This document shows positions 4,279 to 59,639 of a stretch of 64,000 nucleotides of DNA, one piece after another. Position 1 is the stretch's first letter. Every line of letters starts with the position of its first letter. This stretch comes from Candidatus Nomurabacteria bacterium (GTDB taxonomy: Bacteria > Patescibacteriota > Minisyncoccia > Phycocordibacterales > UBA9973). The notes below the pieces were generated by a model that was given only the letters and a program-made list of their open reading frames with translations, was not told the origin of the DNA and did not search any database. A program made the position numbers and the translations under genes. The stretch lies in assembly GCA_963842815.1 (NCBI GenBank), contig CAWJHU010000001.1, positions 179,020 through 243,019 of the forward strand. Direction: 5' to 3'.

Positions 4279-4292
4279 TTTACTTTATTGTA

Positions 4293-5274: not shown

Positions 5275-5279
5275 ATTTT

Positions 5280-5681
5280 TTATCTGGATGTTCCAAAAAG
5301 ATTTATTGTGTCTAGACTGACAGTTTCAACACATACCGAAGGAGGACAAGGCCTCGTGCAAGTTATCATTGATTGCCCTTCATATTTGCCTAGGATTAAC
5401 CCGCCCATTTTTGGGGTAGTTCTGGTTTTAGAAGTTATATAAGAGGGAATAAAATAATTAATCGGGGTGCTCGTCTGGGAGCCAAGGGGTAAGATTGAAA
5501 TTGAGGTACCAAACATAGGGCATGTGTAGCCAGCATCCTTAAGTGCCTCTATTGGGATAGCGGTTGTTTCAATTACTCTCCCGCCAAAAAACTTTCCCAA
5601 GGAAAAAGAAGCGGAAACTACCCTAGTACTGGCAAATACCAGAAAAACGATTAGCAAAATAAAAATTATGCCTTTTTTCAC
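5280..5681 (-). CDS. Small secreted protein (133 aa), unknown function
   Basis: Signal peptide MKKGIIFILLIVFLVFASTRVVSA. First gene of a same-strand cluster of secreted/membrane proteins. Confidence 0.5.
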   Translation of the reverse strand: MKKGIIFILLIVFLVFASTRVVSASFSLGKFFGGRVIETTAIPIEALKDAGYTCPMFGTSISILPLGSQTSTPINYFIPSYITSKTRTTPKMGGLILGKYEGQSMITCTRPCPPSVCVETVSLDTINLFGTSR

Positions 5682-5713
5682 ATATATATTATAACAATAT
5701 TAAAAGATAGGTG

Positions 5714-35863: not shown

Positions 35864-37024
35864 TTATTCCTCTTTCACTTCCACTTTGTCGCCGTCGGTG
35901 GAAGCGACTGCTTTGCCATCGCCTTTGATGTCTATTCTCCAACCGGTGAGCTTGGCGGCGAGACGCACATTTTGTCCGCCCTTGCCGATAGCCAGAGAGA
36001 GCTGGTCGTCAGCGACTTCTATCACCGCTTTATGTTCTTTTTCATCCAGTTCTATGGAAATGACTTTGGCTGGGGAAAGGGAATTAGAAACAAATTGTTT
36101 TGGGTCTTCGGACCAAGGAATGATATCTATCTTTTCGCCCAAAAGTTCTTGAGTAATGGTATTGACCCGAGTGCCTTTTTGCCCGACACAAGAACCGACT
36201 GGGTCAATGTGTTCATCGTTGGAATGTACGGCTATTTTGGAACGGGCGCCCGCTTCGCGCGCTACTGATTTTATTTCCACCGTTCCATTTTCCACTTCCG
36301 GCGCTTCCATGGCAAAAAGTTTTTCTATAAATTTAGGATGAGTGCGGGAAAGGCGGAGGTTGATGCCTCTAGGCGAATCTTCCACCGAATATAAATAAGC
36401 TCGCACCCGCTGGCCTCTCTGGAAAAATTCTCCCGGAATCTGTTCTTCGGCAGGCAAAATGCCCGTGGCGCGATTGAAATCCACATAAACATTTCCTCTT
36501 TCTATTTTCTGCACGAGGCCGGAAACTATTTCTCCTTCTTTGGTGCCATATTCGTCAAGGACGGAAGTGCGTTCAGCTTCGCGGATTCTCTGAATGATGA
36601 CCTGCTTGGCGGTCTGGGCGGCGATGCGTCCATAATCTTCTTTGGCTTCCAATGGGAAAACAACTTCATCGTTCAATTGCACACCTTTTTTTATTTTTTT
36701 TGCGTCTTCCAGCATAATATGATGCTCGCTGTTGAAGCGAACGCGTTCATCGCCTTCTTCTTTGACCGAATATTCTTCCTCCGCATCATTTCCTTCATCC
36801 ATTCTGGCGATAGTATCGTCCACCACTATTTTTATTTGAAAAAAGTCTGTCTTGCCGGTTTCCAAATCAAACTTAGCGCGAATGATTTGTCCTTTCTTGC
36901 CGTAATCTTTTTTATAGGCGGCGGCCATGGCCTGCTCTATGGCATCCAGTATTTTTTCTTTTGGAATTTTCTTTTCTTCCTCCAACTGCTCCAATGCCGA
37001 CTTGAATGTTTTTATATCTAACAT
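35864..37024 (-). CDS. nusA: Transcription termination/antitermination factor NusA
   Basis: N-terminal domain, S1, tandem KH (IGKGGQNVRLAAKLTGWRIDIK). Confidence 0.85.
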   Translation of the reverse strand: MLDIKTFKSALEQLEEEKKIPKEKILDAIEQAMAAAYKKDYGKKGQIIRAKFDLETGKTDFFQIKIVVDDTIARMDEGNDAEEEYSVKEEGDERVRFNSEHHIMLEDAKKIKKGVQLNDEVVFPLEAKEDYGRIAAQTAKQVIIQRIREAERTSVLDEYGTKEGEIVSGLVQKIERGNVYVDFNRATGILPAEEQIPGEFFQRGQRVRAYLYSVEDSPRGINLRLSRTHPKFIEKLFAMEAPEVENGTVEIKSVAREAGARSKIAVHSNDEHIDPVGSCVGQKGTRVNTITQELLGEKIDIIPWSEDPKQFVSNSLSPAKVISIELDEKEHKAVIEVADDQLSLAIGKGGQNVRLAAKLTGWRIDIKGDGKAVASTDGDKVEVKEE

Positions 37025-37169
37025 AGCTGATTTATAGTGAGCTAAGCGAACATATAAATCGCTACCCTGTAAAACAAAAATCATTTTGATTTTTCCTTGC
37101 CTTTGGCAAGGGTTTTACTGGGGTTTTAAAATTATACTCGTTTCACTCGTTAATTTAATAAACAAATCA

Positions 37170-37448
37170 TTACCCTGTTAAATACGATTTGAGCCTATTT
37201 CTTAAAAACTGTTTACCTAAATATGTTTTTAAATATTTTTCACGATGCATTGCATCATGTTTATTTAAACAAACTTCAGAATAAATCAATTCTAAGGGTC
37301 GGCGTTGTTTAGTAGAACTTACTTGACCATTACAATGTTGCTCAAATCGTGATTTCAAATCTTCTGTATATCCGACATAGAAATCCTTATCTTTATCAGA
37401 CCTTAGAACATATATGTAGTAAAACTTTTTTACTTGATTTGAAATCAT
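37170..37448 (-). CDS. GIY-YIG nuclease-domain protein (92 aa)
   Basis: YIYVLRSDKDKDFYVGYTEDLKSRFEQH matches the GIY-YIG motif. The ORF is bounded by the short inverted repeat CCCTGTTAA / TTAACAGGG. Confidence 0.7.
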   Translation of the reverse strand: MISNQVKKFYYIYVLRSDKDKDFYVGYTEDLKSRFEQHCNGQVSSTKQRRPLELIYSEVCLNKHDAMHREKYLKTYLGKQFLRNRLKSYLTG

Positions 37449-37743
37449 TTAACAGGGTTAATAAAATTATATTCACTCCGTTCATTAATTTTAATTAAAA
37501 AGCCCTGTTGCGACAGGACTTGTACAATGCATAGATTAGCATAATGTGTGGTTAAATGCAAGGCATCATAAACCCCCTCCCAGCCTCTCCCTTATCAGGG
37601 CGAAGAGAAGGAAAGAAAAAATTCCCCCTGACAAAAGGGTTAGGGGTTATACCCCATAATATAAAGCTAGAATGGAGCTCAGGGATAAAAGAAGCCAGGG
37701 TGTTTTAGGTTGCAATTTTTTTAATTAATAGTAAAGTATATTT

Positions 37744-38418
37744 ATGGATTCTCTCAAGAAAGTAATCGTATTGTTTTCCGGAGGAAAAGATTCTTCGGCT
37801 GCTGTTGTTGAAATGATACGTGCTGGATATAGAATTAAGTTATTTACCTATTCAGAATTTCCAGGATTAGTTGGTCCAAATGGCGATTCCCCCTCTAGTA
37901 TTAGGTATAAAGAATTGCTAAATTCTTTTCCGCAATATATTGACACTGATCGGGTAATTAGAATAAATTCGTATCTAGTTAGAAAATTAGCAATAGAAAA
38001 AACAAACAGCACTCACATAGTTTATCCAATAGCACTTGCGCTTGCAATACACGTAGATGCAATTTTATATTGCTTAGAGAACGATATTTATGATATTGCT
38101 TCTGGAAATTCTGGATATCAAGCAAAAGAGGATAGATATATTGAACAACAAAGCAACTTCTGTGAACTTATGAGAGCTTTTTTAGCGGAATATGGCATTA
38201 CATACCATACACCAGTCATAAAAAAATCAAAAAAAGAAATAATGGATATTTTGGAACAATGTAGCATTAGTTCAAACTCGCTTGAAGGTAAATCTGTATT
38301 CGGTGCTGTCCCATTTGAAGTAGATAAAGCATTGGATTTTTGGGAAGAATCTATTCCTATATGTAGAAAATATATTGCAAACTTTAGTCATATAGAAAAA
38401 AAAGAAAAAAATAATTAG
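37744..38418 (+). CDS. PP-loop (N-type ATP pyrophosphatase) superfamily protein, QueC/ExsB-like but lacking C-terminal Zn cluster
   Basis: VIVLFSGGKDSSAAVV carries the SGGxDS PP-loop. 224 aa. Confidence 0.55.
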   Translation: MDSLKKVIVLFSGGKDSSAAVVEMIRAGYRIKLFTYSEFPGLVGPNGDSPSSIRYKELLNSFPQYIDTDRVIRINSYLVRKLAIEKTNSTHIVYPIALALAIHVDAILYCLENDIYDIASGNSGYQAKEDRYIEQQSNFCELMRAFLAEYGITYHTPVIKKSKKEIMDILEQCSISSNSLEGKSVFGAVPFEVDKALDFWEESIPICRKYIANFSHIEKKEKNN

Positions 38419-38420
38419 AA

Positions 38421-38882
38421 ATGATGATTTCAGAAAAAAATTATTTAGTTATAAGCAAGAAATTATTAGATACTGCGCGCAAAGATGGCATAGAGCGAAA
38501 ATCAGTAAAACTTGTAATAAAGAAAAAAAATACTGTGCTTATGTTAAAGCGAGCAAAAAATGACCACTTCCCGGATTTATACGAGTTGCCTGGAGGTAGT
38601 CTTAATGAAAATGAAGATATTTTTACAGGAGCTAAAAGAGAACTATACGAAGAAACGGGGTTTCTAATACAAGATTTTATTTCTCAGCTTAAAAACATTG
38701 ATTTTAATTCAATCTCTAACCAAAAAAAATGTCGCCAATATACATTTATTGTTTTACCTATTGGAAAAGACATAATTTTAAATCCAAATGAACATAGTGA
38801 ATATAAATGGGTATCTAGCGCCGAACTGGAAAATTTATATATATTTCCTAAAATTAGAATAATGATTAAAAAAATTCTTTGA
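38421..38882 (+). CDS. NUDIX hydrolase
   Basis: Nudix box GGSLNENEDIFTGAKRELYEETGF (GX5EX7REUXEEXGU). The start is 3 nt after the upstream gene. Confidence 0.75.
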   Translation: MMISEKNYLVISKKLLDTARKDGIERKSVKLVIKKKNTVLMLKRAKNDHFPDLYELPGGSLNENEDIFTGAKRELYEETGFLIQDFISQLKNIDFNSISNQKKCRQYTFIVLPIGKDIILNPNEHSEYKWVSSAELENLYIFPKIRIMIKKIL

Positions 38883-38963
38883 AAATAAATTGCTATTGCA
38901 ATTAATTATAGCAGTCATATAAAAAAGAAAACCTGTGACAGAGTGTTGCATATGCCACAGGTC

Positions 38964-39422
38964 TCACGAACAATATTTTCTACGATGATACTCTCCATGA
39001 AGTAGTTCGTTTACATCATTAAAAGAAACGGTTGTGATTTGTATTTCAAATGACACTCCGTTTTTATATGCAATGAATTGCAGAAGTCGTAGCACTTTCC
39101 CATTAATGCTGGGACATTCTTTTGGTTTTTTGATGTAATCATGATCAAGAAAACCGGAAAATGTTTGTGAAATTTTTTCAAGAACTGCATACGCCTCATC
39201 AATTGATTCCACAAGAATGCGTATGCCATACACATCATCAATGGAGAAAATATTCTTTGTATTTTTCAGACACATCTTTTTCCTTAATATCTCTGAATCT
39301 TTTATGCGGGAAATGATGAACAGATTTTTTACAACAGCACCCACGATACTTTTTACTTCTTCCGCAAGCATATCAATCGTACAACCTATATGCTGTTTAT
39401 ATATTGATATATTATTACACAT
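38964..39422 (-). CDS. Small RelA/SpoT-domain nucleotidyltransferase-like protein (152 aa), possible small alarmone synthetase / toxSAS-like, catalytic completeness uncertain
   Basis: SRIKDSEIL, DVYGIRILVESIDEAYAVL, DYIKKPKE, FEIQITT, HGEYHRRKY are collinear with RelA_SpoT domain motifs (RxKxxxS, D-x-G-x-R, DYIxxPK, EIQIRT, HxxYK). Confidence 0.45.
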   Translation of the reverse strand: MCNNISIYKQHIGCTIDMLAEEVKSIVGAVVKNLFIISRIKDSEILRKKMCLKNTKNIFSIDDVYGIRILVESIDEAYAVLEKISQTFSGFLDHDYIKKPKECPSINGKVLRLLQFIAYKNGVSFEIQITTVSFNDVNELLHGEYHRRKYCS

Positions 39423-39522
39423 GGCTACAGTTGCCTCCTTTCTGTTGTGAATGTGTATACACAGAGAAAATTATTCTCTCTGTTCTCCGTATATTACTCT
39501 AAATTGTTTTAATCATTTTGTC

Positions 39523-39603
39523 AAACTTGCCAAGCGGAACTTATTTCTACAAGCTCCAAACAGGAGCCAATGTAGAAACAAAAAAGATGCTTTTAGTTAA
39601 ATA
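39523..39603 (+). pseudogene. 3' remnant of a fourth CTD-cassette gene (encodes ...[27 protein letters not shown])
   Basis: ~80 nt nearly identical to the 3' ends of 40348..41256 and 44047..44955. It is followed by the same terminator type as after 42271..43152. Confidence 0.7.
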
Positions 39604-39665
39604 AAATACAAACCAAACCCGTAAGTTTGGTTTTTTATTTTTCTTTTATGATAAAATATAAAAAT

Positions 39666-40040
39666 ATGGAAAAAGATTTTGATAAATGGAACGAATTAAA
39701 GAAAAAAATAGATGTTCGTAATTCAGTATATGTGTCTGAAAGGGATATATGGTTTTGTTCCGTTGGTTTAAATATTGGAAGCGAACAAAGCGGCAAACAT
39801 GAACTTTTTGAACGTCCGGTTTTAGTTGTTAAAGAAGTTACATCAAATACATTTATTGGCATACCTTTAACTTCAAACAGAAAGAAAGGCTCCTGGTACG
39901 TGGAAATAAAATCTACTGACTCCTCCGCTATTATTTCCCAAATAAAATTATTTGATACAAGACGGCTTGCCCGTAAAATAGGGGTTATTTCAATTGAAGA
40001 ATTTGAAATTATAAAAAAGAAATTAAAAGATTATATATAA
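39666..40040 (+). CDS. PemK/MazF-family endoribonuclease toxin-like protein (no adjacent antitoxin seen)
   Basis: SGKHELFERPVLVVKEVTSNTFIGIPLTS matches the MazF/PemK fold signature. It occupies the slot held by an NYN gene after cassette 2. Confidence 0.55.
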   Translation: MEKDFDKWNELKKKIDVRNSVYVSERDIWFCSVGLNIGSEQSGKHELFERPVLVVKEVTSNTFIGIPLTSNRKKGSWYVEIKSTDSSAIISQIKLFDTRRLARKIGVISIEEFEIIKKKLKDYI

Positions 40041-40177
40041 ACAACGAAACCCCCGTAAGGGGGTTTCTCGGAGGCCGAAGCCAAAGTTGTCTACAATATA
40101 GCAAAATCAATATTGAAAGTCAAGCAAAAATATGAAGGCCATTAATTTTGGAAGATTGGGTACATAAAAGGCCACAA

Positions 40178-40347
40178 AATAAGGCTAGAATTGGGGTTGG
40201 GGATAAAGGGGGCTAAAGGGCTTGACATTTGGGTTGATTAGGTGTATTATAATACACAGATAAAGGTTTGTCAATTTTCTTCGAAAAATAAAACAGCTTT
40301 GGCGGATATCCCGCACAAGGCATCACATTTAACTTATAGGAGGCGTT
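40178..40347 (+). promoter_or_regulatory. Repeated promoter + 5' leader module, copy 1 (-35 TTGACA 40222..40227, -10 TATTAT 40245..40250, AGGAGG 40338..40343)
   Basis: ~170-bp block near-identical to 42099..42270 and 43863..44046. The untranslated leader between the -10 and the SD is conserved over ~95 nt. Confidence 0.75.
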
Positions 40348-41256
40348 ATGAAAACGTCATTAAGTATATTAGTTCTTTTGGTAATTTTTGCAGTCGTATT
40401 CTTTACTTCTGCTTTCTCGCAACAACAGATTCAAAACAATGTAGTTAGCAGTAATTGGGGTTTCAATGGTGGGTATTATAATAACCTTGATGCCCAATAT
40501 ACTAAATTTTTACGGGACGCCGATGGCGGAGCTGAATTTTGGATGTCTGGCGGAACGTTCTCGTTTGCACCTAGAATAATGGGTACAGACATGTGGTTTT
40601 TAGGGACTTTTTCTTCTCCATGGCTTCTCGGCGATTCGCTTTCCCTTGAAGTTCAACTTCAATGGAAAGCAGGTGATATCAAGCGCGTTTCTGTTCACAT
40701 AGGTCTTACGGATACATCCATAGGCTCATATTACCCGGGGGAATACAAAATAATTACCTTAGATTCATCCAGGCAAAGACTTTCTTGGGATATGTCTGAA
40801 TTAAAAAAAGCAGGATGGCGGTCAATATCCCAAATGGATTTAGCCTTTGACGCAATCACAACGGATTCTTGCAATGTGGTGTTGCGGATGAGAGGAATGA
40901 ATATGGTTTCCACTGACAGTCTCAGTAGAAAAACCGATATTGCTTTTAATCTCATTTCCACCGGAGTCAAAGAAGTTTCTGCTCAAACTCCAAAAGGGTT
41001 TGCTCTGGAACAGAATTATCCCAATCCGTTCAATCCTTCAACGAAAATTTCTTACTCATTAAAAAACACAGAAAAAGTTTATCTTTCAGTGTTCAATACA
41101 TTGGGTCAAGAAATTGCCGTTTTGGTAAATGACACTCAGAATGCCGGATCTCATGAAGTTATGTTTTCCGCATCTAATTTACCAAGTGGAACATATTTCT
41201 ACCGCCTGCAAACAGGAGCCAATGTAGAAACAAAAAAGATGCTTCTCATAAAATGA
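40348..41256 (+). CDS. Secreted protein with T9SS/Por-type C-terminal sorting-domain-like tail, cassette paralog 1
   Basis: Signal peptide MKTSLSILVLLVIFAVVFFTSAFSQ. C-terminal LEQNYPNPFNPSTKISYSL...VFNTLGQEIAVLV...[13 protein letters not shown]...KKMLLIK. Confidence 0.75.
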   Translation: MKTSLSILVLLVIFAVVFFTSAFSQQQIQNNVVSSNWGFNGGYYNNLDAQYTKFLRDADGGAEFWMSGGTFSFAPRIMGTDMWFLGTFSSPWLLGDSLSLEVQLQWKAGDIKRVSVHIGLTDTSIGSYYPGEYKIITLDSSRQRLSWDMSELKKAGWRSISQMDLAFDAITTDSCNVVLRMRGMNMVSTDSLSRKTDIAFNLISTGVKEVSAQTPKGFALEQNYPNPFNPSTKISYSLKNTEKVYLSVFNTLGQEIAVLVNDTQNAGSHEVMFSASNLPSGTYFYRLQTGANVETKKMLLIK

Positions 41257-41282
41257 GAAGACATCTAGAATTACAGTGCCCG

Positions 41283-41316
41283 ACCTTACAAAGGTTTGGG
41301 CATTTTTTTTTATTTA
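41283..41316. terminator. Bidirectional terminator hairpin GCCCGACC...GGTTTGGGC + T-run
   Basis: Between convergent genes. Confidence 0.55.
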
Positions 41317-41326
41317 ATAACTAAAT

Positions 41327-41896
41327 TCAAAAAATAAATTGTTGCAAATCTGTACTGCCAAATACTCTTTGATAATCACAATCTTTTATTAAACCAACTG
41401 AAGTAGAGTTTGAAAACCCAACATATTCAACTTTTTTCCCTTTTGATTGAACATATTTAATTGCTGGTATTAAATCTGTATCCGAGCTAACAATTATTGC
41501 TGTGTCATATTTATTTTCAATTCCATCAATTACCAAATCAATAGCTATTTTTACATCAACTCCTTTTTCTCTTATTTGATGGTCATAAACAATTTTTCCT
41601 CTCTCTATAACAAAACCGTCATTTTCAAGTATTGATAAAAATTTTTGTTGATTAGCCACCATTTCTGAAGATTTTTTGGTATGGTTATAGTTTCTTACAA
41701 TTCCCACATAATACCCCTTACCGCATAAATTTCTATTGGAAGCCAGAAAAAGAGCAAACTCTTTATAATTAAATGCTCTTCCGGCAGGTATAATTTTAGG
41801 TATTATTGATTCATCTTTTGAATTTTTAGATTCCTTGAAAAGAGCTTTATATGTATTGCCTCCATCTATATAAATTTTTACTCTCTCTGGTGTCAT
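41327..41896 (-). CDS. NYN-domain (LabA-like) protein, paralog 2
   Basis: KIYIDGGNTY ... IIVSSDTDLIPAI. Confidence 0.65.
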   Translation of the reverse strand: MTPERVKIYIDGGNTYKALFKESKNSKDESIIPKIIPAGRAFNYKEFALFLASNRNLCGKGYYVGIVRNYNHTKKSSEMVANQQKFLSILENDGFVIERGKIVYDHQIREKGVDVKIAIDLVIDGIENKYDTAIIVSSDTDLIPAIKYVQSKGKKVEYVGFSNSTSVGLIKDCDYQRVFGSTDLQQFIF

Positions 41897-42098
41897 GCGG
41901 AATATTATATCATATATAAAAACAAAACTGCCCTTGTCTTGCGACAGTGGCAGTGAGCTTAGTGATAGTAGTATATCACAGGTAGCAAGAAAAAGTCAAG
42001 TTATAATACAAAAAAATAATTTTGTCAATTTTTTCGTAAATCTCGGCAGAGAAGACAAAAAATAAACAAATATTTAGCAATTTTCAAATCTTCCCACT

Positions 42099-42270
42099 AA
42101 AATAAGGCTAAAATAGGGGCTGGGGATAAAGGGGGCTAAAGGGCTTGACATTTGGGTTGATTAGGTGTATTATAATACACAGATAAAGGTTTGTCAATTT
42201 TCTTCGAAAAATAAAACAGCTTTGGCGGATATCCCGCACAAGGCATCACATTTAACTTATAGGAGGCGTT
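42099..42270 (+). promoter_or_regulatory. Repeated promoter + leader module, copy 2
   Basis: See copy 1. Confidence 0.75.
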
Positions 42271-43152
42271 ATGAAAACGCTCGTAAATATATTTGTTCTT
42301 TTAATAGTTGTTTCTTTGTCTGCTTTATCTCAGCAGAAGATTCAAACTGAGAATGGATGGAATTTCGCTGGAGCTTATGGTTACCTGGATTCTACTCAGA
42401 CTAGGTCCTACGAAACCTCTACAGGCAGTCAAGTATTTAAGTCTTATGGAGAAACGGGAGGGGACTTGGTTTTCCAAACAACTTGGTCTAAAGATTTTAA
42501 GAATTTATTAATGCCTGATACAATTTCCATAGATTTGGAATTTCTAAAAGGAGTTAATAATAGGAAAACCACTTGTATTTTCCTGGCGGTGCAAGAATCA
42601 CCCATTGGACTTTATTATTTTCTTGGAAAGTATCAACCAGTTTCCTCTAGTGGAGAATGGCAAAGGTTCTCTTGGGATATGTCTCTAGCGAAGATTTACA
42701 ACATGAAATCACTTTACCGAGTCTATCTCATTCTTGCTACAGAAACAGCAGATTCCATCACTTACACTGGAATGGAAGTAGAGTTAAAAAACTTGATTGG
42801 TATTGATAGTCTGGGAGTAAAGACTTACATCGACCTTGGTGCTATTGCCACCGGAGTCGATGGAGTTTCTGAAGTAAAACAAGTTCCTTCTGGATTTGTT
42901 TTGGAACAAAACTATCCTAACCCTTTCAATCCTGATACAAGGATTTCTTACTCACTGAAAAATGCAGGAAAAGTTCATCTTTCTGTATTTAACATGTTGG
43001 GTCAAGAAGTTGCAGTTCTAGTGAATGGCACTCAAAACATAGGAGCTCATGAGGCCACGTTTAATGCCTCAAACTTACCAAGTGGTGTTTACTTGTGTAG
43101 GCTTGCGGTTGATAACAATGTCATTACAAAAAAGATGCTTTTGCTAAAATAA
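42271..43152 (+). CDS. Secreted protein with Por-type CTD-like tail, cassette paralog 2 (divergent N-terminal domain)
   Basis: Signal peptide MKTLVNIFVLLIVVSLSALSQ. CTD LEQNYPNPFNPDTRISYSL...VFNMLGQEVAVLV...FNASNLPSGVYLCRL...KKMLLLK. Confidence 0.75.
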   Translation: MKTLVNIFVLLIVVSLSALSQQKIQTENGWNFAGAYGYLDSTQTRSYETSTGSQVFKSYGETGGDLVFQTTWSKDFKNLLMPDTISIDLEFLKGVNNRKTTCIFLAVQESPIGLYYFLGKYQPVSSSGEWQRFSWDMSLAKIYNMKSLYRVYLILATETADSITYTGMEVELKNLIGIDSLGVKTYIDLGAIATGVDGVSEVKQVPSGFVLEQNYPNPFNPDTRISYSLKNAGKVHLSVFNMLGQEVAVLVNGTQNIGAHEATFNASNLPSGVYLCRLAVDNNVITKKMLLLK

Positions 43153-43221
43153 TATTTAAATACTAAACATAAACCAAACCTGCAAGTTTGGTTTTTTATT
43201 TTTCCGTGATAAAATTTATAA

Positions 43222-43737
43222 ATGAATAAAGAAAATAATCTTGCTTTTATTGATGGACAAAATTTACACATAGGAATAATGCAAAATGATTGGAAGATTG
43301 ACCATAATAAATTTAGAATATATTTAAAAGATAAGTATCATGTATCAGAAGCTTATTATGTTTTAGGCTTTATTTCAGAAAAAGAACAAGATTTATATAA
43401 CAATCTTCAAAAGGCAGGGTTTATAGTTATATTTAAAGAACACAATCCTAAGCTTTTAGCTAAGAAAAAAGGAAATGTGGACACCGACATTGTTTTTGAA
43501 GCAATGAAAAATCTTATTGATAACAAAAATTTTGATAAAATAGTTTTGGTTTCTGGCGATGGAGATTATAAAAAATTAGTTGATTACTTAATTACAAAAA
43601 ATAAATTTAAAAAAATACTTTTTCCAATCAAGAAGTTCGCGTCATCTTTATACGATGATCTGGGTTCAGAATTTTTTGATTATTTAGAAAACCTTAAAAC
43701 ATACATAGAATGGCATAAAAAAGAAAAGGGCTCCTAA
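43222..43737 (+). CDS. NYN-domain (LabA-like) protein, paralog 3
   Basis: LAFIDGQNL ... VDTDIVFEAM ... LVSGDGDY. Confidence 0.65.
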   Translation: MNKENNLAFIDGQNLHIGIMQNDWKIDHNKFRIYLKDKYHVSEAYYVLGFISEKEQDLYNNLQKAGFIVIFKEHNPKLLAKKKGNVDTDIVFEAMKNLIDNKNFDKIVLVSGDGDYKKLVDYLITKNKFKKILFPIKKFASSLYDDLGSEFFDYLENLKTYIEWHKKEKGS

Positions 43738-43862
43738 GGCACAAACACCTTTCGGATCCCTTTTCGTATAAATATGCCTTGATTGTATCATGTATCTCGC
43801 ATCTATGCAAGGGATTTTGTCTATTTTATAGGACTTTTGCTCCTTAAGCCAATATCCCCCAC

Positions 43863-44046
43863 AAAATAAGGCTAAAAAGGGGGTTGTGGATAGATTGGGG
43901 ATAACTTAGGCTAAGGGGACTTGACATTTGGGTTGATTAGGTGTATCATAATACACAGATAAAGGTTTGTCAATTTTCTTCGAAAAATAAAACAGCTTTG
44001 GCGGATATCCCGCACAAGGCATCACATTTAACTTATAGGAGGCGTT
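43863..44046 (+). promoter_or_regulatory. Repeated promoter + leader module, copy 3
   Basis: See copy 1. Confidence 0.75.
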
Positions 44047-44955
44047 ATGAAAACGTCATTAAGTATATTAGTTCTTTTGGTAATTTTTGCAGTCGTATTC
44101 TTTACTTCTGCTTTCTCGCAACAACAGATTCAAAACAATGTAGTTAGCGGTAATTGGGGTTTCAATGGTGGGTATTATAATAACCTTGATGCCCAATATA
44201 CTAAATTTTTCCGGGACGCCGATGGCGGAGCTGAATTTTGGATGTCTGGCGGAACGGTTTCATTTTCGCCTACAACAATGGGTACAGACATGTGGTTTTT
44301 GGGGACTTTTTCTTCTCCATGGCTTCTCGGCGATTCGCTTTCCCTTGAAGTTCAACTTCAATGGAAAGCAGGCGATATCAAACGAGTTTCTGTCCACATA
44401 GGTCTTACGGATACATCCATAGGCTCATATTACCCGGGGGAATACAAAATAATTACCTTAGATTCATCCAGGCAAAGACTTTCTTGGGATATGTCTGAAA
44501 TAAAAAAAGCAGGATGGCGGTCAATATCCCAAATGGATTTGGCCTTTAAGGCAAATACAGTGGATTCTTGCAATGTAGTGTTGCGAATGAGAGGAATGAA
44601 TATGGTTTCCACTGACAGTCTCAGTAGAAAAACCGATATTGCTTTTAATCTCATTTCCACCGGAGTCAAAGAAGTTTCTGCTCAAACTCCAAAAGGGTTT
44701 GCTCTGGAACAGAATTATCCCAATCCTTTTAATCCTTCAACGACTATAAGATTCTCTGTTCCCCAAACGGAACAGGTGAGTTTGAAAGTTTATAATTCAT
44801 TAGGGCAAGAAGTTCAAACCCTGGTGAATGAAGTGAAAGGAAAAGGAAATTATGAAGCGACGTTTAATGCTTCTAACTTGCCTTCCGGAACATATTTCTA
44901 CAGACTCCAAGCAGGAGTCAATGTAGAAACAAAGAAAATGATGTTAGTAAAGTAA
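44047..44955 (+). CDS. Secreted protein with Por-type CTD-like tail, cassette paralog 3 (N-terminal ~230 aa near-identical to paralog 1; CTD of a different subtype)
   Basis: Mosaic structure. The body equals paralog 1 and the tail is LEQNYPNPFNPSTTIRFSV...VYNSLGQEVQTLV...[16 protein letters not shown]...KKMMLVK. Confidence 0.75.
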   Translation: MKTSLSILVLLVIFAVVFFTSAFSQQQIQNNVVSGNWGFNGGYYNNLDAQYTKFFRDADGGAEFWMSGGTVSFSPTTMGTDMWFLGTFSSPWLLGDSLSLEVQLQWKAGDIKRVSVHIGLTDTSIGSYYPGEYKIITLDSSRQRLSWDMSEIKKAGWRSISQMDLAFKANTVDSCNVVLRMRGMNMVSTDSLSRKTDIAFNLISTGVKEVSAQTPKGFALEQNYPNPFNPSTTIRFSVPQTEQVSLKVYNSLGQEVQTLVNEVKGKGNYEATFNASNLPSGTYFYRLQAGVNVETKKMMLVK

Positions 44956-44961
44956 AATTTA

Positions 44962-45000
44962 GGGTCTGGAACAATTTATTGTTTCGGACCCTTTTTCGTT
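44962..45000 (+). terminator. Rho-independent terminator GGGTCTGGAACAA...TTGTTTCGGACCC + TTTTT
   Basis: Hairpin + U-tract after the cassette 3 stop. Confidence 0.6.
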
Positions 45001-45054
45001 TCCAGACTTATCAACAGTCTTATTAATTTTTTCAATTTGTGGTGTATAATATAA

Positions 45055-47040
45055 ATGTATTTACTAATTAAAACTAGTTTTAAAAATATGCATACATATA
45101 AAAAATTTTTAATAATCTTTATTTTTACATTTGGAATATTATTGGCGCGGAATGCCTCAGCTACTGCTCCGGATGCTTTTATTTCCGCCGGTTCTTCTGG
45201 CACTGGAACAAATGTCCAAATAACTATCCCGAGCGGGAGTAGAACCACAATCTCTTGGGGGACAAACAATGGAACTAACTGCGCTGCTGATGACACGGAC
45301 CATTCATCTCCCGAAGCGATTAGTTTATATAATGCTTTTTCTGCGGTAGTAGGAAATTTGTGGGCCGGGTCTTATTTAACACCTTATTTGACTAGCACCG
45401 CTTACTATAGTGTGCATTGTTACAATTATTATAATGAAAAAAGTGCCATAGTAACAGCTACGATTTTAATTGGCACAAATGGTTCTTGTTCGTCAACTCC
45501 CTATGGTTGTTCTGCGGGGACAAGTGCTAATAATGCGGAGAGTACCACTTCTTGGACTTGGACTTGCGTCGGTTTGGGCGCGGGAACGAATGCTTCTTGT
45601 TCACAAACAAAACCCACTGGCACCCTAACTGCTGCTAATTGTACAATCCCTGATGGCTCAAATAGTTGCAATTCAACAGTTAATTGGACACAAACCCCCA
45701 ATATAGCTTCTTTTGCTACTATTTATGCTGAATCTCCAAACTGGACTGGTCTTACTTCACTCTCTGTTCCTCCTCCTTCTTCCCCAGATGGAAGTTCAGG
45801 TTCTTTTTCAGCTTCTATCCCATATAATTATGAAAAATTTTATCTTTATGCCCTTAATGGTAGTACTATTCTTTCTACAACTACTGTTACGGCCAATTGT
45901 GCCTCAGCTTCTTCTTGGAGTACCAGTAGCAATACCTGCGTGCCCAAACCCGTCCTAGCTCTTTCAGCTTATCCCGCCACTGTTTATCTCCCAGTAGGGG
46001 CACTCGCGCAATCGGCATCAACAATAACAACAACAGCTGGGAGTAGTGTTACCGGCATTAATTATGCGCAACCTATGACAGACTCTGACAATGGTAAATG
46101 CCTTTTGACTACAAAGTTGCTTGATAGGAGCGATGGGAACAAAGACCTTTCCATTGATACAACTAAGGCAACAAACAGTGACTGTAAGCCTGGATACGTA
46201 AATGTAACCGCAACAGGAAATAATGGAGCAGTTTCTAGTTCAACAACCGTAACTGTCAACATAATGTCCGGCACACTCACACCAAATAATTCATATTGCA
46301 CTATTTCCGAAGGGAAAAGCAGTTGCAATGTGGGCCTGACTTGGAAGGTGACGAATCCCACGGTTCCCGGTCCAATTTCTGCCGTCACTTCTTCCATAAA
46401 AGACGATGGGACCGCTAATAACAATACTCCTGTTTATTACAATGATGATGCGGACAGTAGGTCAGTTGTTGTTCCATACAGCAATACTCTTAAGCCGGAT
46501 GTTCATGGCAGAGATTTTTATCTTTATAACAATGGCTATCCTCTTGCCCAGACTTCTGTTACGGCTAGTTGTGTCTCGGGTCTCAACTGGGACGGAAGCA
46601 AGTGTGCCTTGTCTGTTCCAGTCCTTCCCATTCCCGCTTCTCCTTCCATTGACGCTACCACCGGAGCCTGTGGAGGAAAAATCAATTTGGTTTGGGAGGC
46701 TGTCTCTGGAGCGGCCAGCTACAATGTATATCGCGACAACTTAAGTACTAAATTGGCCGCCGCCGGAAACAGCGCGCATGATTCGTCAAATCCATATGTT
46801 GATACCGGACTTGCGCTCGGCTCCAACCATACCTATGGCATTTCCGCTTCAAATACGAGCGGAACTTCTGCTGTGTCTTGGACTAACAACGGTATTATGG
46901 CTTCAGGCGCTTGCACTCAATTATCCGGAACGCTTTCCGCGGATTCTCCTTCTTCACCGTTGAATTCTCTTCTTTGCATCATTCCCACCGGACAGAGCAG
47001 TTGTTCCGTGAACCTAAGCTGGGACACTGAATTCCCTTAA
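45055..47040 (+). CDS. Large secreted surface protein (661 aa) built from repeated 4-Cys modules and Ig/Fn3-like segments; adjacent to T4P genes
   Basis: Signal peptide ...FLIIFIFTFGILLARNASA. Module GSCSSTPYGCSAGTSANNAESTTSWTWTCVGLGAGTNASCSQTKP. Many C-x-I-P / S-S-C-N motifs. Confidence 0.65.
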   Translation: MYLLIKTSFKNMHTYKKFLIIFIFTFGILLARNASATAPDAFISAGSSGTGTNVQITIPSGSRTTISWGTNNGTNCAADDTDHSSPEAISLYNAFSAVVGNLWAGSYLTPYLTSTAYYSVHCYNYYNEKSAIVTATILIGTNGSCSSTPYGCSAGTSANNAESTTSWTWTCVGLGAGTNASCSQTKPTGTLTAANCTIPDGSNSCNSTVNWTQTPNIASFATIYAESPNWTGLTSLSVPPPSSPDGSSGSFSASIPYNYEKFYLYALNGSTILSTTTVTANCASASSWSTSSNTCVPKPVLALSAYPATVYLPVGALAQSASTITTTAGSSVTGINYAQPMTDSDNGKCLLTTKLLDRSDGNKDLSIDTTKATNSDCKPGYVNVTATGNNGAVSSSTTVTVNIMSGTLTPNNSYCTISEGKSSCNVGLTWKVTNPTVPGPISAVTSSIKDDGTANNNTPVYYNDDADSRSVVVPYSNTLKPDVHGRDFYLYNNGYPLAQTSVTASCVSGLNWDGSKCALSVPVLPIPASPSIDATTGACGGKINLVWEAVSGAASYNVYRDNLSTKLAAAGNSAHDSSNPYVDTGLALGSNHTYGISASNTSGTSAVSWTNNGIMASGACTQLSGTLSADSPSSPLNSLLCIIPTGQSSCSVNLSWDTEFP

Positions 47041-47073
47041 AGTATCTATCCTATTAATTTTTTAAAATTACAA

Positions 47074-48648
47074 ATGATTAATAAAATAAAAAAACAAAAT
47101 ATGAATAAAAAATTTTTAGCGATATTTATTTTTGCGGTCGGAATTCTTTTTGCCAATAACGCTTTGGCAACTAACGGCGCCTGTGGTCCGGCTAATGGAA
47201 CGAACTCCTGCCTTGCCCCTACCAGCTATCTTTGTTCTGCCGGGACAGCTTCAGCAGTTTCCGGAAATGGTTCCTCATGGACTTGGGTTTGCACGGGTAA
47301 TAACTATGGAACCAATGCGTCGTGTTCAGCAAATGTAGTATGTCCAGTCAACGGCACTTGCTCATCCCCGGCTACTCACTATACTTGCGCTGCAGGCACA
47401 AGCACCAGTAATGCGGAAACTTCCAGTTCTTATACCTGGTCCTGCCAGAGTTCCAACGGTGGAACCACTGTATCCTGTACGGAAAGCAAACCGGCAGTCA
47501 ATGGCGCTTGCGGTTCGGCCAACGGACAAAGTTTTTCTTCTACTCCGTCTTCAAATCTTTGCAGTGCGGGTACAGCAACCGGCGTGACAAGCGGAACTAA
47601 TTGGACTTGGTCTTGCCAGGGTTCCAATTATGGAACCAATGCGTCCTGTACGGCGTACAAAACTACTTCCGCCATTACCAGCTCTATTACCGATGCCGGA
47701 GCTGTTTCCACTATTTCTACCAAAACAGTCTACACTGGAAATTCGGGTACCAGCAAATCAGTTGTTATCCCGTATATCAATAGTAATGATACTACCCATA
47801 GCCGAACATTTTATCTTTATAATAATTCCATTCTTCTCAATCAAAAAACTATCACGGCAAGCTGTAGTTCAACTGATTATTGGGATACTGTTTCCAAAAC
47901 ATGCCAGCCAAATACCAATAATAACGGATCCTGTTCAGCCACTCATTATAATTGTATTAAGGGGACAAGCGCTAATAACATAGAAGGAACTGACGCCTAC
48001 ACTTGGATTTGCGAAGGCGGTTCTGGCGGAACTGATGCGTATTGTTCCGAAAACAAAACCGCTCCTTCCGGCACGCTGTCCGTTACTTCCTGCACTATTC
48101 CAAATAACGCATCCACTTGCTCTGCAAAAGTTTCCTGGACCACCGCCAATTTAATTTCTGGCGCCGCCACGGCGGTAACCAGAGACAATCCCGCGAACAC
48201 TACTGTTTCTTCAGCAACCTCCGGCACCAATGTAAGCAATACTGTTAATTATGGGACGAGTAATTTTTACCTTTATCATAATGGAACAGAACTTGCTCAA
48301 GCCACCATTACCGCAAACTGTGTTTCAGGCAATTGGAATAACAGCAGCGGAAAATGCGTAGTTGCTTCTCCTCTTTCTCCGACTGCCGGCATTTTAGTCA
48401 GTCCTTCATCCATAGCCTCGGGCGGAAGCGCAACCGTTACTTGGACTTCAAGCAATACAAACTCTTGCACGGGTACCGGCTTTGATACGGGCGGAGCCAC
48501 TTCCGGCAGTGTTACGGTTAGTCCAACGGCAACCACCACCTATTCAATCGTTTGCGACAATGGAACAGTTCAGGCGTCCGATCAGGCGACGATAACCATA
48601 ACGGGGACAGGCACAGGGACTAAAAAACCGGGATATAAAGAAAATTAA
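47074..48648 (+). CDS. Secreted surface protein (524 aa) with at least 4 tandem ~50-aa 4-Cys modules (CxAGT...WTWxC...NASC) and C-terminal Ig-like domain
   Basis: Signal peptide MNKKFLAIFIFAVGILFANNALA. Repeats spelled out in the translation. Confidence 0.65.
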   Translation: MINKIKKQNMNKKFLAIFIFAVGILFANNALATNGACGPANGTNSCLAPTSYLCSAGTASAVSGNGSSWTWVCTGNNYGTNASCSANVVCPVNGTCSSPATHYTCAAGTSTSNAETSSSYTWSCQSSNGGTTVSCTESKPAVNGACGSANGQSFSSTPSSNLCSAGTATGVTSGTNWTWSCQGSNYGTNASCTAYKTTSAITSSITDAGAVSTISTKTVYTGNSGTSKSVVIPYINSNDTTHSRTFYLYNNSILLNQKTITASCSSTDYWDTVSKTCQPNTNNNGSCSATHYNCIKGTSANNIEGTDAYTWICEGGSGGTDAYCSENKTAPSGTLSVTSCTIPNNASTCSAKVSWTTANLISGAATAVTRDNPANTTVSSATSGTNVSNTVNYGTSNFYLYHNGTELAQATITANCVSGNWNNSSGKCVVASPLSPTAGILVSPSSIASGGSATVTWTSSNTNSCTGTGFDTGGATSGSVTVSPTATTTYSIVCDNGTVQASDQATITITGTGTGTKKPGYKEN

Positions 48649-57407: not shown

Positions 57408-59153
57408 ATGCAGAGATATGATGAACTGTTGCGGACAATTTTAGGGAAAAGAGGTATAAAAACTCCGGAGGAAGCGGAGATTTTTTTGAATCCGGATTTT
57501 GAAAGGGATTTGCACGACCCATTCAAGATGAAAGATATGGAAAAAGCTTGCGTGAAGCTTTTTGAGGCCATAGACAGCAAAGAAAAAATCGTTATTTATG
57601 CGGATTACGATTGCGACGGCATTCCCGGGGCGGTTATTTTGGAAGATTTATTCAAAAAAATCGGTTTTACGAATTATGAAATTTATATTCCCGGAAGAAA
57701 TTCCGAAGGCTACGGGCTTAATCCTTCTGCCATAAAACAATTTGCAAAAGATAAGGTAAAACTTTTAATAACTGTTGACCTGGGGATTACGGCAGTGGCT
57801 GAAGTGGCCCAAGCGGAAGTTGAGGGAATTGAAGTGATTATTACCGACCATCACCTGCCGAAACAGAAAGTTCAGGGTGTAAAAAATTCTCCCGCCTTCG
57901 CCCTCGGAGACAAAAAGACAGGGGACCCACGGCTCCTTAATTTTTTACACCCCGAACTTTCTTTACCGAAAGCTTATGCAATATTAAATCCGAAGGTGGA
58001 TAATTATCCTGAAAAAATGTTATGTGGAGCAGGAGTAGTTTTTAAATTTGTGCAAGGATTTGTAAAAAAATACGGCGAATTTTATAAAATAAATATCGGT
58101 TGGGAAAAATGGCTTATGGATATGGCGGGGTTGGCCACTCTTTCCGACCTGGTTCCTCTTTTGGGAGAGAACAGAGCCATCGCTTATTTTGGGATGAAAG
58201 TTTTAAGAAAATCTTCCCGTCCCGGCCTGCAAAAACTTCTAGCCAAAATGAATATTGACCAAAAATATCTGACCGAAGATGATATCGGTTTTATGGTGGT
58301 GCCCAGACTGAATGCCGCTTCCCGGATGGATGACCCCATGAAGGCCTATGAACTTCTTTCCACAAGCGATGAGGTGAAAGCGGGAGTAATTGCCGGCCAC
58401 TTATCAAAAATAAATGATGATAGAAAAATAATGGTTGCCGGCATTATGCGGGAAGTGAATAAAAAATTTGAAAAACGCAAAATGGGAGAAGTTATCGTGA
58501 TAGGCAATCCGCAGTGGCGGGTGGGGGTTCTCGGGCTGGTGGCCGCCAAAATATCGGAAGAACACAAAAAACCCGTTTTCGTTTGGGGAAAAGATGAAAA
58601 TGACCTTATCAAGGGTTCCTGTCGTTCCGATGGATCGGTGTCCGTTGTGGAACTTATGACCGAAACAAGTGAATTTTTTGCGGAATTCGGCGGACACGAA
58701 TTTGCCGGCGGTTTTACGGTGCACAACGACAAAATTCATTTTTTAGAAGAAGCCCTTTCTCTTTCTTATAATAAAGTGAAGCGCGATAAAACGGAAAGTG
58801 AAATAGTTTATGATATTAAATCCGATTTAGGCGTAGTAAATATGAAAAATTGGAAAGAAATGGAAAAACTTGCCCCCTTCGGTCTGGCTAATCCCAAGCC
58901 AATTTTTCTTTTTGAAGGAGCAAAAATAGAAAATATTAAAAAATTCGGGAAAAACGGTTCCGGAGAACATTTGGAAATTACTTTTTCCGATGCAAGCAAA
59001 AATAAAGTTAAGGCAATTTCTTTTTTCTCAAATAATGAATCTTTTAAAGTTCCTTTATCGGAAAATTTAAAAGTAAATCTTTTGGCCACCTTTGATTTGT
59101 CTAGGTTTAGGGGCAAAGTTGAGTTAAGATTAAGAGTGGAAGACATTTATTAA
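57408..59153 (+). CDS. recJ: Single-stranded-DNA-specific exonuclease RecJ
   Basis: DHH motifs (IYADYDCDG, ITDHH) and a DHHA1 region (GGHEFAGG). Confidence 0.85.
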   Translation: MQRYDELLRTILGKRGIKTPEEAEIFLNPDFERDLHDPFKMKDMEKACVKLFEAIDSKEKIVIYADYDCDGIPGAVILEDLFKKIGFTNYEIYIPGRNSEGYGLNPSAIKQFAKDKVKLLITVDLGITAVAEVAQAEVEGIEVIITDHHLPKQKVQGVKNSPAFALGDKKTGDPRLLNFLHPELSLPKAYAILNPKVDNYPEKMLCGAGVVFKFVQGFVKKYGEFYKINIGWEKWLMDMAGLATLSDLVPLLGENRAIAYFGMKVLRKSSRPGLQKLLAKMNIDQKYLTEDDIGFMVVPRLNAASRMDDPMKAYELLSTSDEVKAGVIAGHLSKINDDRKIMVAGIMREVNKKFEKRKMGEVIVIGNPQWRVGVLGLVAAKISEEHKKPVFVWGKDENDLIKGSCRSDGSVSVVELMTETSEFFAEFGGHEFAGGFTVHNDKIHFLEEALSLSYNKVKRDKTESEIVYDIKSDLGVVNMKNWKEMEKLAPFGLANPKPIFLFEGAKIENIKKFGKNGSGEHLEITFSDASKNKVKAISFFSNNESFKVPLSENLKVNLLATFDLSRFRGKVELRLRVEDIY

Positions 59154-59161
59154 TAAAGATT

Positions 59162-59632
59162 ATGGAAAAAGCAAGAACAATAATTTATACGGATGGAGCG
59201 GCAAGAGGGAATCCCGGCAAGGCAGGTTGGGGCGCTATTTTAATTGACGGAAAAAAAGTTTTTGAAATTGGCGGAGCATCAAAGCATGCGACAAATAATC
59301 AAATGGAGCTTACCGGGCCCATTGAGGCGCTGAAACATATTAAAAAAACGGAAAAAAATGTCTCCATAGAAATTTTTTCCGATTCAAAATACGTTATTTT
59401 GGGAATTACCGAATGGATTTTCAATTGGCAGAAAAATAATTGGAGAAATGCTGCCAAAAAGACGGTTTTAAATAAGGAACTTTGGGAAGAACTTTATGAA
59501 CTTTCAAAATTATTTAAAATCAAATGGATTTATGTGGAAGGGCATAGTGGCCATAAATGGAACGAAAGAGCGGATGAAATAGCCACCAATTTTGCGGATG
59601 GCGTTGCGATGAAACTTAAAAAAGAAAAATAA
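59162..59632 (+). CDS. rnhA: Ribonuclease HI
   Basis: IYTDGAARGNPGKAGWGAIL ... MELTGPIEAL ... SDSKYV ... GHSGHKWNERADEIA. Confidence 0.85.
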   Translation: MEKARTIIYTDGAARGNPGKAGWGAILIDGKKVFEIGGASKHATNNQMELTGPIEALKHIKKTEKNVSIEIFSDSKYVILGITEWIFNWQKNNWRNAAKKTVLNKELWEELYELSKLFKIKWIYVEGHSGHKWNERADEIATNFADGVAMKLKKEK

Positions 59633-59639
59633 TTTTTAA

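Follow-up and report, generated by a model that had tools for sequence, protein, structure and literature searches.

In the vlp and vsp loci of Mycoplasma, tandem genes with conserved 5′ non-coding regions and signal peptides encode proteins with divergent mature regions, and switching takes place via promoter poly-A tracts or via site-specific inversion by a linked recombinase. The erp genes of Borrelia burgdorferi share a leader-peptide region in addition to their promoters, have divergent mosaic mature parts and were shaped by recombination. The promoter region of these Erp/OspE-F paralogs is near-identical and is known as the 'upstream homology box' (PMC7002432). Here, we describe a tandem array of three genes (P1, P2 and P3) for predicted exported proteins, interleaved with a PemK/MazF-like gene and two NYN-domain genes (NYNa and NYNb), in 64,000 nt of a Candidatus Nomurabacteria/Paceibacterota chromosome from the candidate phyla radiation (CPR). 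The source is a contig of a metagenome-assembled genome (MAG); the whole stretch is referred to as the window, and all coordinates are window-based. As in the Erp family, a near-identical promoter and leader precedes divergent mosaic coding sequences, here in two genomes. In contrast, the Erp proteins are lipoproteins encoded on cp32 prophage plasmids, have no secretion-type C-terminal domain (CTD) and are under a known operator-based regulation, whereas the P array is a chromosomal tandem. The array also resembles the vlp and vsp loci in its conserved 5′ ends, but neither of their switching features was found here among the genes scanned, among the repeats or by inspection. By analogy, paralogs that have an upstream homology box in common, like the Erp family, would be the closest model for the evolution of the array. 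We favor, at a probability of about 0.6, the reading that the array is a set of paralogs homogenized by gene conversion, and that the variable island which holds it is flanked by nusA and the type IV pilus genes.

A promoter and leader block is repeated before three paralogous genes

The open reading frame (ORF) list holds three family genes on the plus strand, P1 (40348-41256, 302 aa), P2 (42271-43152, 293 aa) and P3 (44047-44955, 302 aa), which together with their upstream regions are referred to as cassettes 1 to 3. Judged from these sequences, the whole array stems from one small protein family, with three of the paralogs intact and one truncated. The truncated copy is a 3′ remnant on the plus strand (39521-39604) that retains the last 27 codons of the CTD and the stop codon, with 87.5% nucleotide identity to the tail end of P1 and 83% to that of P3. 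It is followed by an intrinsic terminator with a hairpin and a T-run (39610-39643, plus strand), which is homologous to the P2 terminator (90% over 40 nt). The original prediction, which was made from the sequence by inspection, had described such a remnant with a P2-type terminator as well as three genes behind a near-verbatim promoter and leader block, and both descriptions were borne out, the latter by the ORF list, the repeats, self-BLAST and alignment. Every P copy is an autonomous unit with its own promoter, strong Shine-Dalgarno site, gene and intrinsic terminator. The terminators lie at 41277-41311 behind P1 (a hairpin and nine T residues between P1 and the convergent NYNa, found by sequence inspection), at 43171-43204 behind P2 (plus strand, of the same repeat family as the remnant terminator) and at 44961-44992 behind P3 (plus strand). 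Each gene would be transcribed from its own consensus sigma-70 promoter to its own intrinsic terminator, and since the units are autonomous, all copies are probably expressed together.

The repeated block covers ~135 nt and is 98-100% identical across the three copies in a direct-repeat search, in self-BLAST and in the alignment. It extends from CTTGACA (40221, 42144 and 43920) through ATGAAAACG, and the sole difference is one base of the -10 element, which reads TATTAT or TATCAT. Self-BLAST of the region 39.4-45.1 kb against the whole window gave E-values of 1e-78 to 1e-93 for the block and no further copy elsewhere in the 64 kb. In cassette 1, a -35 element (TTGACA, from 40222), a 17-nt spacer, a -10 element (TATTAT, 40245-40250), AGGAGG (40338-40343) and the ATG (40348) are found at the predicted positions. 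The promoter core, which can be read on both strands, occupies 40222-40274, with copies at 42145-42197 and 43921-43973. The 5′ leader of cassette 1 (40257-40347, plus strand, about 91 nt) includes a hairpin at 40295-40321 as well as the AGGAGG, and has identical copies at 42180-42270 and 43956-44046.

Relatives were collected as 80 nusA loci from related MAGs, which were searched by tblastn with the window proteins. Family genes were found within a few kb of nusA in seven of the 80 MAGs (L001, L008, L010, L013, L018, L030 and L074). These seven have different names and assembly styles and contribute eight family genes, and every family copy with visible genomic context is on a Nomurabacteria/Paceibacterota contig. 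Conservation across species (window, L001 and L008) covers 55 nt of the block, a core that spans CTTGACA to TTTGTCAAT.

In this core, the plus strand reads TTGACA-17-TATTAT and the minus strand TTGACA-17-TATAAT, and the two share a symmetric -10. The predicted transcription start sites (TSSs) at 40257 (plus) and 40239 (minus) are 18 bp apart, with positions -7 and -11 reciprocally paired, and both sets of hexamers are retained in L001 and L008 although the spacers vary. Symmetric bidirectional sigma-70 promoters have been described in which the -10 elements overlap on opposite strands and the TSSs are 18 bp apart (PMC10268837; Warman et al. 2021). The P core is alike in its overlapping -10 elements and in its predicted TSS spacing, but differs from these promoters in that it has perfect -35 hexamers on both arms and that the whole element is copied three times. 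By its sequence geometry, the core matches the symmetric bidirectional type, which is a common layout. The reverse arm faces NYNa in cassette 2 and a DUF6922-AbiEii pair in L001, and the closest gene on its side in L008 is nusA. Toward PemK and NYNb, in cassettes 1 and 3, it would point antisense. In addition, the right half of the core recurs in part at 42001-42032 (minus strand, TTGACA-17-TATAAC, 81% identity), about 90 nt upstream of NYNa, and this copy is a candidate promoter for the gene.

A riboswitch or otherwise structured leader was rejected, because the leaders had no Rfam match, either at the gathering cut-off or at E ≤ 5, the folding z-scores were modest (-1.9 to -3.0), and the leader is not conserved in L001, L008 and L074. 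The lack of conservation concerns the 3′ two-thirds of the leader; downstream of TGTCAAT, the sequence is unrelated in these loci. Hairpins are seen in some of the family leaders and are missing from others.

Mosaic structure of the array

A sliding identity profile of the three units shows that the closest partner changes along the unit. In the G-rich block upstream of the promoter (40172-40221 in cassette 1, with a copy at 42095-42144 and a longer variant at 43859-43920), cassettes 1 and 2 are 94-100% alike and cassette 3 differs. From the promoter through the leader, P1 and P3 differ only at the -10 base, and their signal-peptide codons do not differ at all. In the body, P1 and P3 are about 97% identical in the sliding profile, and P2 reaches 35-60%. 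In the first 120 nt of the tail, P1 is nearer to P2 (78%) than to P3 (55%), and in the last 60 nt it is nearer to P3 (80%). At the protein level, P1 and P3 are 87% identical overall and 95% identical in the body, with divergent tails, which agrees with the near-identical bodies and different tails that had been predicted. P2, however, had been credited with an unrelated body, and this part did not hold: P2 is a diverged homolog of P1 with 42% amino acid identity over the full length (BLASTP E-value 1e-69) and 33% in the body. Synonymous divergence (dS) by the Nei-Gojobori method (NG86) between P1 and P3 is 0.098 in the body (dN/dS 0.27, the ratio of nonsynonymous to synonymous divergence) and 1.41 in the CTD (dN/dS 0.23). 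Since segments with such different dS have separate histories, recombination is required.

The same organization was found in L074 (Candidatus Nomurabacteria nzgw486), where a P gene (3128-4042), an NYN gene (4223-4855), a second P gene (5195-6118) and a PemK gene (6312-6698) follow each other. In this P pair, a block at 2950-3195 is 97-100% identical and spans promoter, leader and the entire signal peptide, while the bodies have about 45% nucleotide identity and the tail starts are 84-94% identical. Since the L074 leader is unrelated in sequence to the window leader and the 5′ block is homogenized there too, 5′ homogenization took place independently in two genomes, with differing boundaries. 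Such a pattern fits general gene conversion, whereas neither a recombination site at a fixed position nor a conserved element in the RNA would explain it. Likewise, the block boundaries vary between pairs and between genomes, which fits general homologous recombination. The promoter reuse and recombination mosaic of the original prediction thus stands, on the partner-switching profile, the dS contrast and its recurrence in L074. We propose that the paralogs recently exchanged the promoter and leader block, in L074 together with the signal peptide, through gene conversion or through unequal homologous recombination, and that the same process would have produced the partner-switching tails.

Some observations weigh against this reading, of which those on the body fold and on the RNase genes are given with these subjects below. 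Besides recent conversion, strong purifying selection acting on a regulatory element could account for the near-identity of the three copies across ~135 nt. The core promoter and an upstream TGTGGATAA-like box are conserved across species, so that part of the block is functionally constrained.

The TGTGGATAA-like motif, which is DnaA-box-like and often reads CTGTGGATAACT, precedes the -35 of most family promoters across genera at a distance of about 20-50 nt. In the window the sites are 40198-40206, 42121-42129 and 43885-43904, and others lie upstream of family genes in L008, L010, L018, L030 and L074. Exact TGTGGATAA copies occur four times in the 64 kb (8681, 11641, 24232 and 62836) against about 0.5 expected at random, and copies with at most one mismatch 25 times against 17.7 expected, which is not significant. 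The box may be a site for a shared regulator. A third partial copy (87% identity) of the family-promoter upstream segment of L074 (2902-2970) was found at 6818-6884, before a radical SAM/SPASM gene (6948-8042), and thus the upstream element is not exclusive to the family. In cassette 1, the G-rich block (plus strand) combines the DnaA-box-like sequence TGGGGATAA with a canonical G-quadruplex (G4) motif at 40193-40220. Only three canonical G4 motifs occur in the 64 kb, compared to a mean of 0.07 in shuffled sequences, and two of them (40193-40220 and 42116-42143) precede the -35 elements of cassettes 1 and 2 by 2 nt; in cassette 3 the motif is degenerate. The G-rich block of the window, G4 motifs included, consists of TGTGGATAA-like motif variants, and the G4 is treated here as a probable by-product of these boxes.

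The mosaic profile, the truncated fourth copy and the equal 5′ homogenization in L074 would also be expected of a programmed antigenic or phase-variation locus in which promoter/leader and CTD act as recombination handles that shuffle bodies and tails at high frequency, and the G4 motifs just upstream of the -35 in cassettes 1 and 2 recall the pilE G4. We nevertheless regard such a locus as quite improbable. All three copies are complete units with promoter, Shine-Dalgarno site, start codon and terminator, and no promoterless silent cassette was found among them. No recombinase or integrase domain was detected with Pfam among the genes scanned from 37170 to 48648, only one inverted repeat, weak and distant, was found in 37-48 kb, and no homopolymer or repeat tract was seen by inspection in the promoter block or the early coding sequence, where no tandem-repeat search was run. 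The dS values of 0.1 in the body and 1.4 in the tail indicate rare, old exchanges. A role of the G4 as a pilE-type recombination trigger was rejected, since the motif is degenerate in cassette 3 and TGTGGATAA variants replace it in the other loci; in addition, the reverse promoter would use the G-rich strand as template and yield a C-rich RNA, while the pilE model calls for the opposite strand. The dedicated variable-surface-protein system of the original prediction is therefore not upheld. As far as the sequence can tell, there is no sign of programmed variation, and gene conversion among paralogs would need no dedicated site-specific mechanism.

The source being a MAG contig and the CTDs resembling those of Ignavibacteria, assembly duplication, which the original prediction had itself raised, or Ignavibacteria DNA joined to a CPR contig could in principle account for the array. 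This is hardly credible. The longest exact repeats between cassettes are 159, 201 and 108 nt, too short to suggest assembly duplication, and the copies differ throughout. The independent array in the L074 MAG also argues against an assembly artefact. The eight family genes of the relatives lie close to a CPR-type nusA in seven differently named and assembled MAGs, the GC content of the P genes (0.37-0.39) equals the window mean (0.389), and the array is flanked by CPR housekeeping and type IV pilus genes; the position beside nusA in seven MAGs and the GC content make chimeric contigs very unlikely. The array itself clearly exemplifies concerted evolution among genes for secreted proteins, and in this it is conventional, as gene families ordinarily evolve in this way. 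It is useful as a worked example in the CPR, where gene-family dynamics are little studied.

Hallmarks of type IX secretion cargo in the encoded proteins

The P proteins start with a Sec/signal peptidase I (SPase I) signal peptide, predicted to be cleaved before a Gln (position +1), and continue with a body of ~190 aa, a flexible linker and a CTD like that of type A cargo of type IX secretion systems (T9SS). In P1, the signal peptide covers residues 1-24 (cleavage between AFS and QQQ) and the CTD residues 224-302; P2 has the same architecture by hidden Markov model and BLASTP matches, with its CTD at 215-293. The signal peptide and +1 residue were judged by inspection and with a crude regular expression, not with SignalP. 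The predicted Por secretion tails were confirmed in all three proteins, which exceed the cut-offs of both models: P1, P2 and P3 score 46.3, 49.5 and 48.0 bits with PF18962 (cut-off 27) and 46.2, 53.7 and 50.9 bits with TIGR04183 (cut-off 23). The CTD is ~75 aa long, Ig-like and ends in K-x-x-x-K.

The body belongs to a rare family. A profile of the three bodies matched only 40 clusters at E ≤ 1e-3 among 1.84 billion representative proteins, and there were no Pfam family matches for the bodies. Of 41 family sequences, 38 are 275-348 aa long and two are fragments, and the tail motif QNYPNPFNP is present in all but one. The bodies have drifted to 19-25% identity, while the CTD is kept in nearly all of the 40 clusters and its dN/dS (0.23) indicates purifying selection. 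Two AlphaFold 2 models of low to moderate confidence, with mean predicted local distance difference test (pLDDT) scores of 59 and 56, agree in their layout: a helix for the signal, then a beta-sandwich, a linker without order and a CTD of seven strands. The second of them, from a run with five sequences (pLDDT 55.6), did not improve confidence. From these low-confidence models (pLDDT 56-59), the body would be a beta-jelly-roll resembling a carbohydrate-binding module (CBM). On this assignment, we suggest that the proteins are exported and bind glycans, as adhesins or lectins whose loops diversify, and the dependence of the CBM-like fold on such models is one of the points that count against the proposed scheme.

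By this expression, 43 of 48 family members have Ala/Ser-Gln across the predicted cleavage site, and the remaining five resemble artefacts of the regular expression or of the start codon. As a control, the same pattern occurred in 21 of 193 (11%) other CPR ORFs with hydrophobic N-termini. A search with the CTD only gave 3224 matches at E ≤ 1e-10, the best of which were 60-77% identical. All CTD matches with a taxon name are called T9SS sorting-domain or C-terminal target proteins, and these named matches come mostly from Ignavibacteriales, Melioribacteraceae, Ignavibacteriaceae, Chloroherpetonaceae or Bacteroidetes MAGs. To our knowledge, CPR bacteria have no outer membrane and no T9SS. Gln at the +1 position (the Q-rule) is typical of Bacteroidetes, with a mean Q-value of 71%, and of Ignavibacterium album, with 77%, and the T9SS is 'rarely if ever found outside' Bacteroidetes (PMC5837995). 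The P proteins are like the T9SS type A cargo of Bacteroidota and Ignavibacteria in the SPase I signal, in the Gln at +1 and in the combination of an N-terminal domain with a ~75-aa Ig-like CTD; they differ in being encoded in CPR genomes and in the rarity of their body. By sequence, the family would thus carry the hallmarks of Ignavibacteria/Bacteroidota T9SS cargo in three independent respects, namely signal, +1 Gln and CTD. Such cargo would be expected in Bacteroidota and related groups and not in CPR. Since the taxon is CPR, the label 'T9SS-secreted' becomes questionable, and this is the interesting part. No T9SS component was matched among the window genes scanned with Pfam, that is in 64 kb of the genome, and no paper linking T9SS C-terminal domains to CPR/Patescibacteria was found in the library searched.

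The odd part of the locus is not the array but T9SS-cargo-like proteins in a tiny Nomurabacteria genome. A conserved family of this kind stands beside the nusA/type IV pilus cluster in several Nomurabacteria, and at least two other types of CTD proteins do likewise in related MAGs. These other Por_Secre_tail proteins, all with Ala-Gln at the predicted cleavage site and on the same side of nusA, are a 493-aa protein in L005 (1917-3398, minus strand) and two tandem Sortilin/BNR-repeat proteins in L070 (2115-3260 and 4448-5644, both minus strand).

One explanation is that this Nomurabacteria lineage maintains and diversifies true T9SS cargo, which is handled by the T9SS and the pyroglutamylation (glutaminyl cyclase) of a diderm host, as host-directed mimicry, or by an undescribed CTD-dependent sorting machinery that works in an envelope lacking an outer membrane; if so, an arms race at this interface would be behind the tandem, recombining array. 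The high identity of the CTDs to those of Ignavibacteriales, Melioribacteraceae and Bacteroidetes MAGs is consistent with this, as are the Gln in essentially all members compared to 11% of the controls, the Q-rule known from Bacteroidetes and I. album, the retention of the CTD under purifying selection despite the drift of the bodies, and the further CTD proteins near nusA in L005 and L070. However, no route is known by which a CPR protein would enter the periplasm of a host, the CPR cell itself would remove the N-terminal signal, and the CTD may be a mere stable Ig-like module kept for folding or anchoring. We consider both the host-handled and the self-sorted version of true cargo unlikely. 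Few CPR lineages have known hosts or a known surface biology. If a host does handle the proteins, the CTD would tell to which clade this host belongs, and a symbiont-host interface of a new kind would come to light. More generally, a CTD that is functional in CPR may point to a specific host group, or would widen the range of CTD-dependent sorting beyond diderm bacteria of the Fibrobacteres-Chlorobi-Bacteroidetes (FCB) group.

RNase genes between the units

The interleaved PemK/MazF-like gene and two NYN genes that had been predicted were recovered with Pfam. The PemK/MazF-like endoribonuclease gene (39666-40040, plus strand, GC content 0.30) matches PF02452 with 49.9 bits and is a solo gene. 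NYNa (41327-41896, minus strand, GC content 0.29), a predicted LabA-like RNase gene convergent with P1, and NYNb (43222-43737, plus strand, GC content 0.26) match the NYN domain with 71.1 and 63.8 bits, and the two are only 23% identical to each other. In the gap between PemK and cassette 1, a GC-rich hairpin, GAAACCCCCGTAAGGGGGTTTC (40046-40067), is a possible bidirectional terminator. The nuclease genes are AT-richer than the P genes (GC content 0.26-0.30 compared to 0.37-0.39); this contrast makes them compositionally foreign and suggests separate origins. With PADLOC, NYNa matched HEC-09 (52 bits) and NYN (40 bits). Both NYN proteins and the NUDIX and RelA_SpoT proteins of the window matched candidate-system models only, and no PADLOC model matched the P proteins or PemK. 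As for type II toxin-antitoxin systems of the MazEF/PemIK kind, the toxin domain is present, but an adjacent antitoxin gene was not found: no plausible flanking ORF of at least 20 aa is present in the window, and in L074 there is no ORF adjacent to PemK among those of at least 80 aa. The L074 PemK homolog is 46% identical to that of the window and occupies the same slot.

In chromosomal integrons, toxin-antitoxin cassettes are interspersed in repeat arrays. The P array is alike in having small toxin-type genes (PemK and NYN) between directly repeated segments, where they could penalize deletions, and it differs in that no integrase was found among the scanned genes, no attC-like site among the repeats found and no antitoxin beside PemK.

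A coupling of each P gene to the RNase gene behind it, by read-through or antisense transcription, into a two-gene defence or addiction module that stabilizes the array was also weighed, and it is a live but unlikely rival. Part of the evidence for coupling also counts against the reading that we favor. The homology of tail, terminator and flank before PemK and NYNb, that is in the remnant unit and the P2 unit, reaches the start codons (39578-39665 compared to 43126-43223, 75%), and in L074 the NYN and PemK genes likewise occupy the same slot with homologous flanks. This regularity of the slot exceeds that of random island insertion and hints at a real linkage. In addition, both multi-copy arrays have nucleases, which are missing from all six single-copy loci. 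The stretch from the terminator to the start codon of the RNase gene yielded no promoter of its own, the reverse promoter arm aims antisense into PemK and NYNb, and both NYN proteins match PADLOC models.

On the other side, the six single-copy relatives carry a P gene without an adjacent nuclease, P3 is not followed by an RNase gene, and NYNa runs convergently to P1 from promoter-like sites of its own. In L026 and L012, the search turned up NYN homologs close to nusA but no P gene, and the GC contrast is that of genes with separate origins. The interleaving described by the original prediction thus stands, with the homologous flanks in favor of its suggested nuclease coupling, while the coupling itself is unproven in view of the relatives without nucleases, the NYN genes without P genes and the foreign GC content. 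Going by sequence features, PemK, NYNa and NYNb are toxin- or defence-type island genes, likely passengers or stabilizers rather than parts of one machine, and they may be transcribed together with the P genes. Under gene conversion in a variable island, they would fill the slots from one terminator to the next promoter inside a variable hot spot.

Genomic setting and relatives

NusA of the window (35864-37084, minus strand) is 94% identical to NusA of a Candidatus Paceibacterota MAG and 79-92% identical to that of dozens of Nomurabacteria/Paceibacterota MAGs, with a few labelled otherwise. Other window genes encode RNase Y, trigger factor, H+-PPase, TyrRS, PGK, SHMT, PilB, PilC, pseudopilins, ComEC and RecJ. 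The NusA identity and this gene content identify the window as part of a CPR chromosome. The common order in the loci with family genes is nusA, a short variable stretch, one or more P genes, large surface proteins and type IV pilus genes. The variable stretch contains AbiEii/DUF6922 in L001, an IS200-like gene in L010, radical SAM/SPASM genes in L074 and L018, and NUDIX, RelA_SpoT and QueC-like genes in the window. The gene in L010 (3069-3746, minus strand) codes for an IS200-like Y1 transposase and separates nusA from the family gene, which fits an insertion hot spot.

Other searches for relatives were less productive. A word-indexed search with the body returned only the window's own proteins and two metagenome contigs too short for context, and a scan of metagenome contigs with the conserved promoter pattern recovered only the L001 and L008 contigs. 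A scan of viral contigs found nothing and thus gave no sign of a phage origin. A pattern scan based on the body alignment matched no relative although relatives exist in the collection, where the NusA-based synteny scan found them; this failure shows the limit of the pattern method.

An AT-rich island of three genes (37744-39422), for which the 80 relatives yielded no homologs, lies between nusA/GIY-YIG and the array. Its genes encode a QueC-like PP-loop protein (37744-38418) whose match is confined to the ~30 residues of its N-terminus, a NUDIX hydrolase (38421-38882; PADLOC PDC-S07, 54 bits) and, convergently, a 152-aa RelA_SpoT-domain protein (38964-39422; PDC-S33, 35 bits). By their domains, the RelA_SpoT and NUDIX pair could be a small-alarmone-synthetase toxin with its partner. 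The stand-alone 92-aa GIY-YIG gene beside nusA (37170-37448, minus strand) is 79-84% identical to genes in L011 and L078, and thus it is a conserved neighbor and not island cargo.

Downstream of the array, two large secreted proteins of 661 and 524 aa without a Pfam match are encoded directly upstream of pilB/pilC (45055-48648). They contain repeated Cys-containing units of ~50 aa (with SWTWTC and GTNASC; repeat family D4) and have homologs in about 30 of the 80 relatives. RecJ and ComEC genes (57408-61115) near the type IV pilus genes are likely to form a DNA-uptake set with them.

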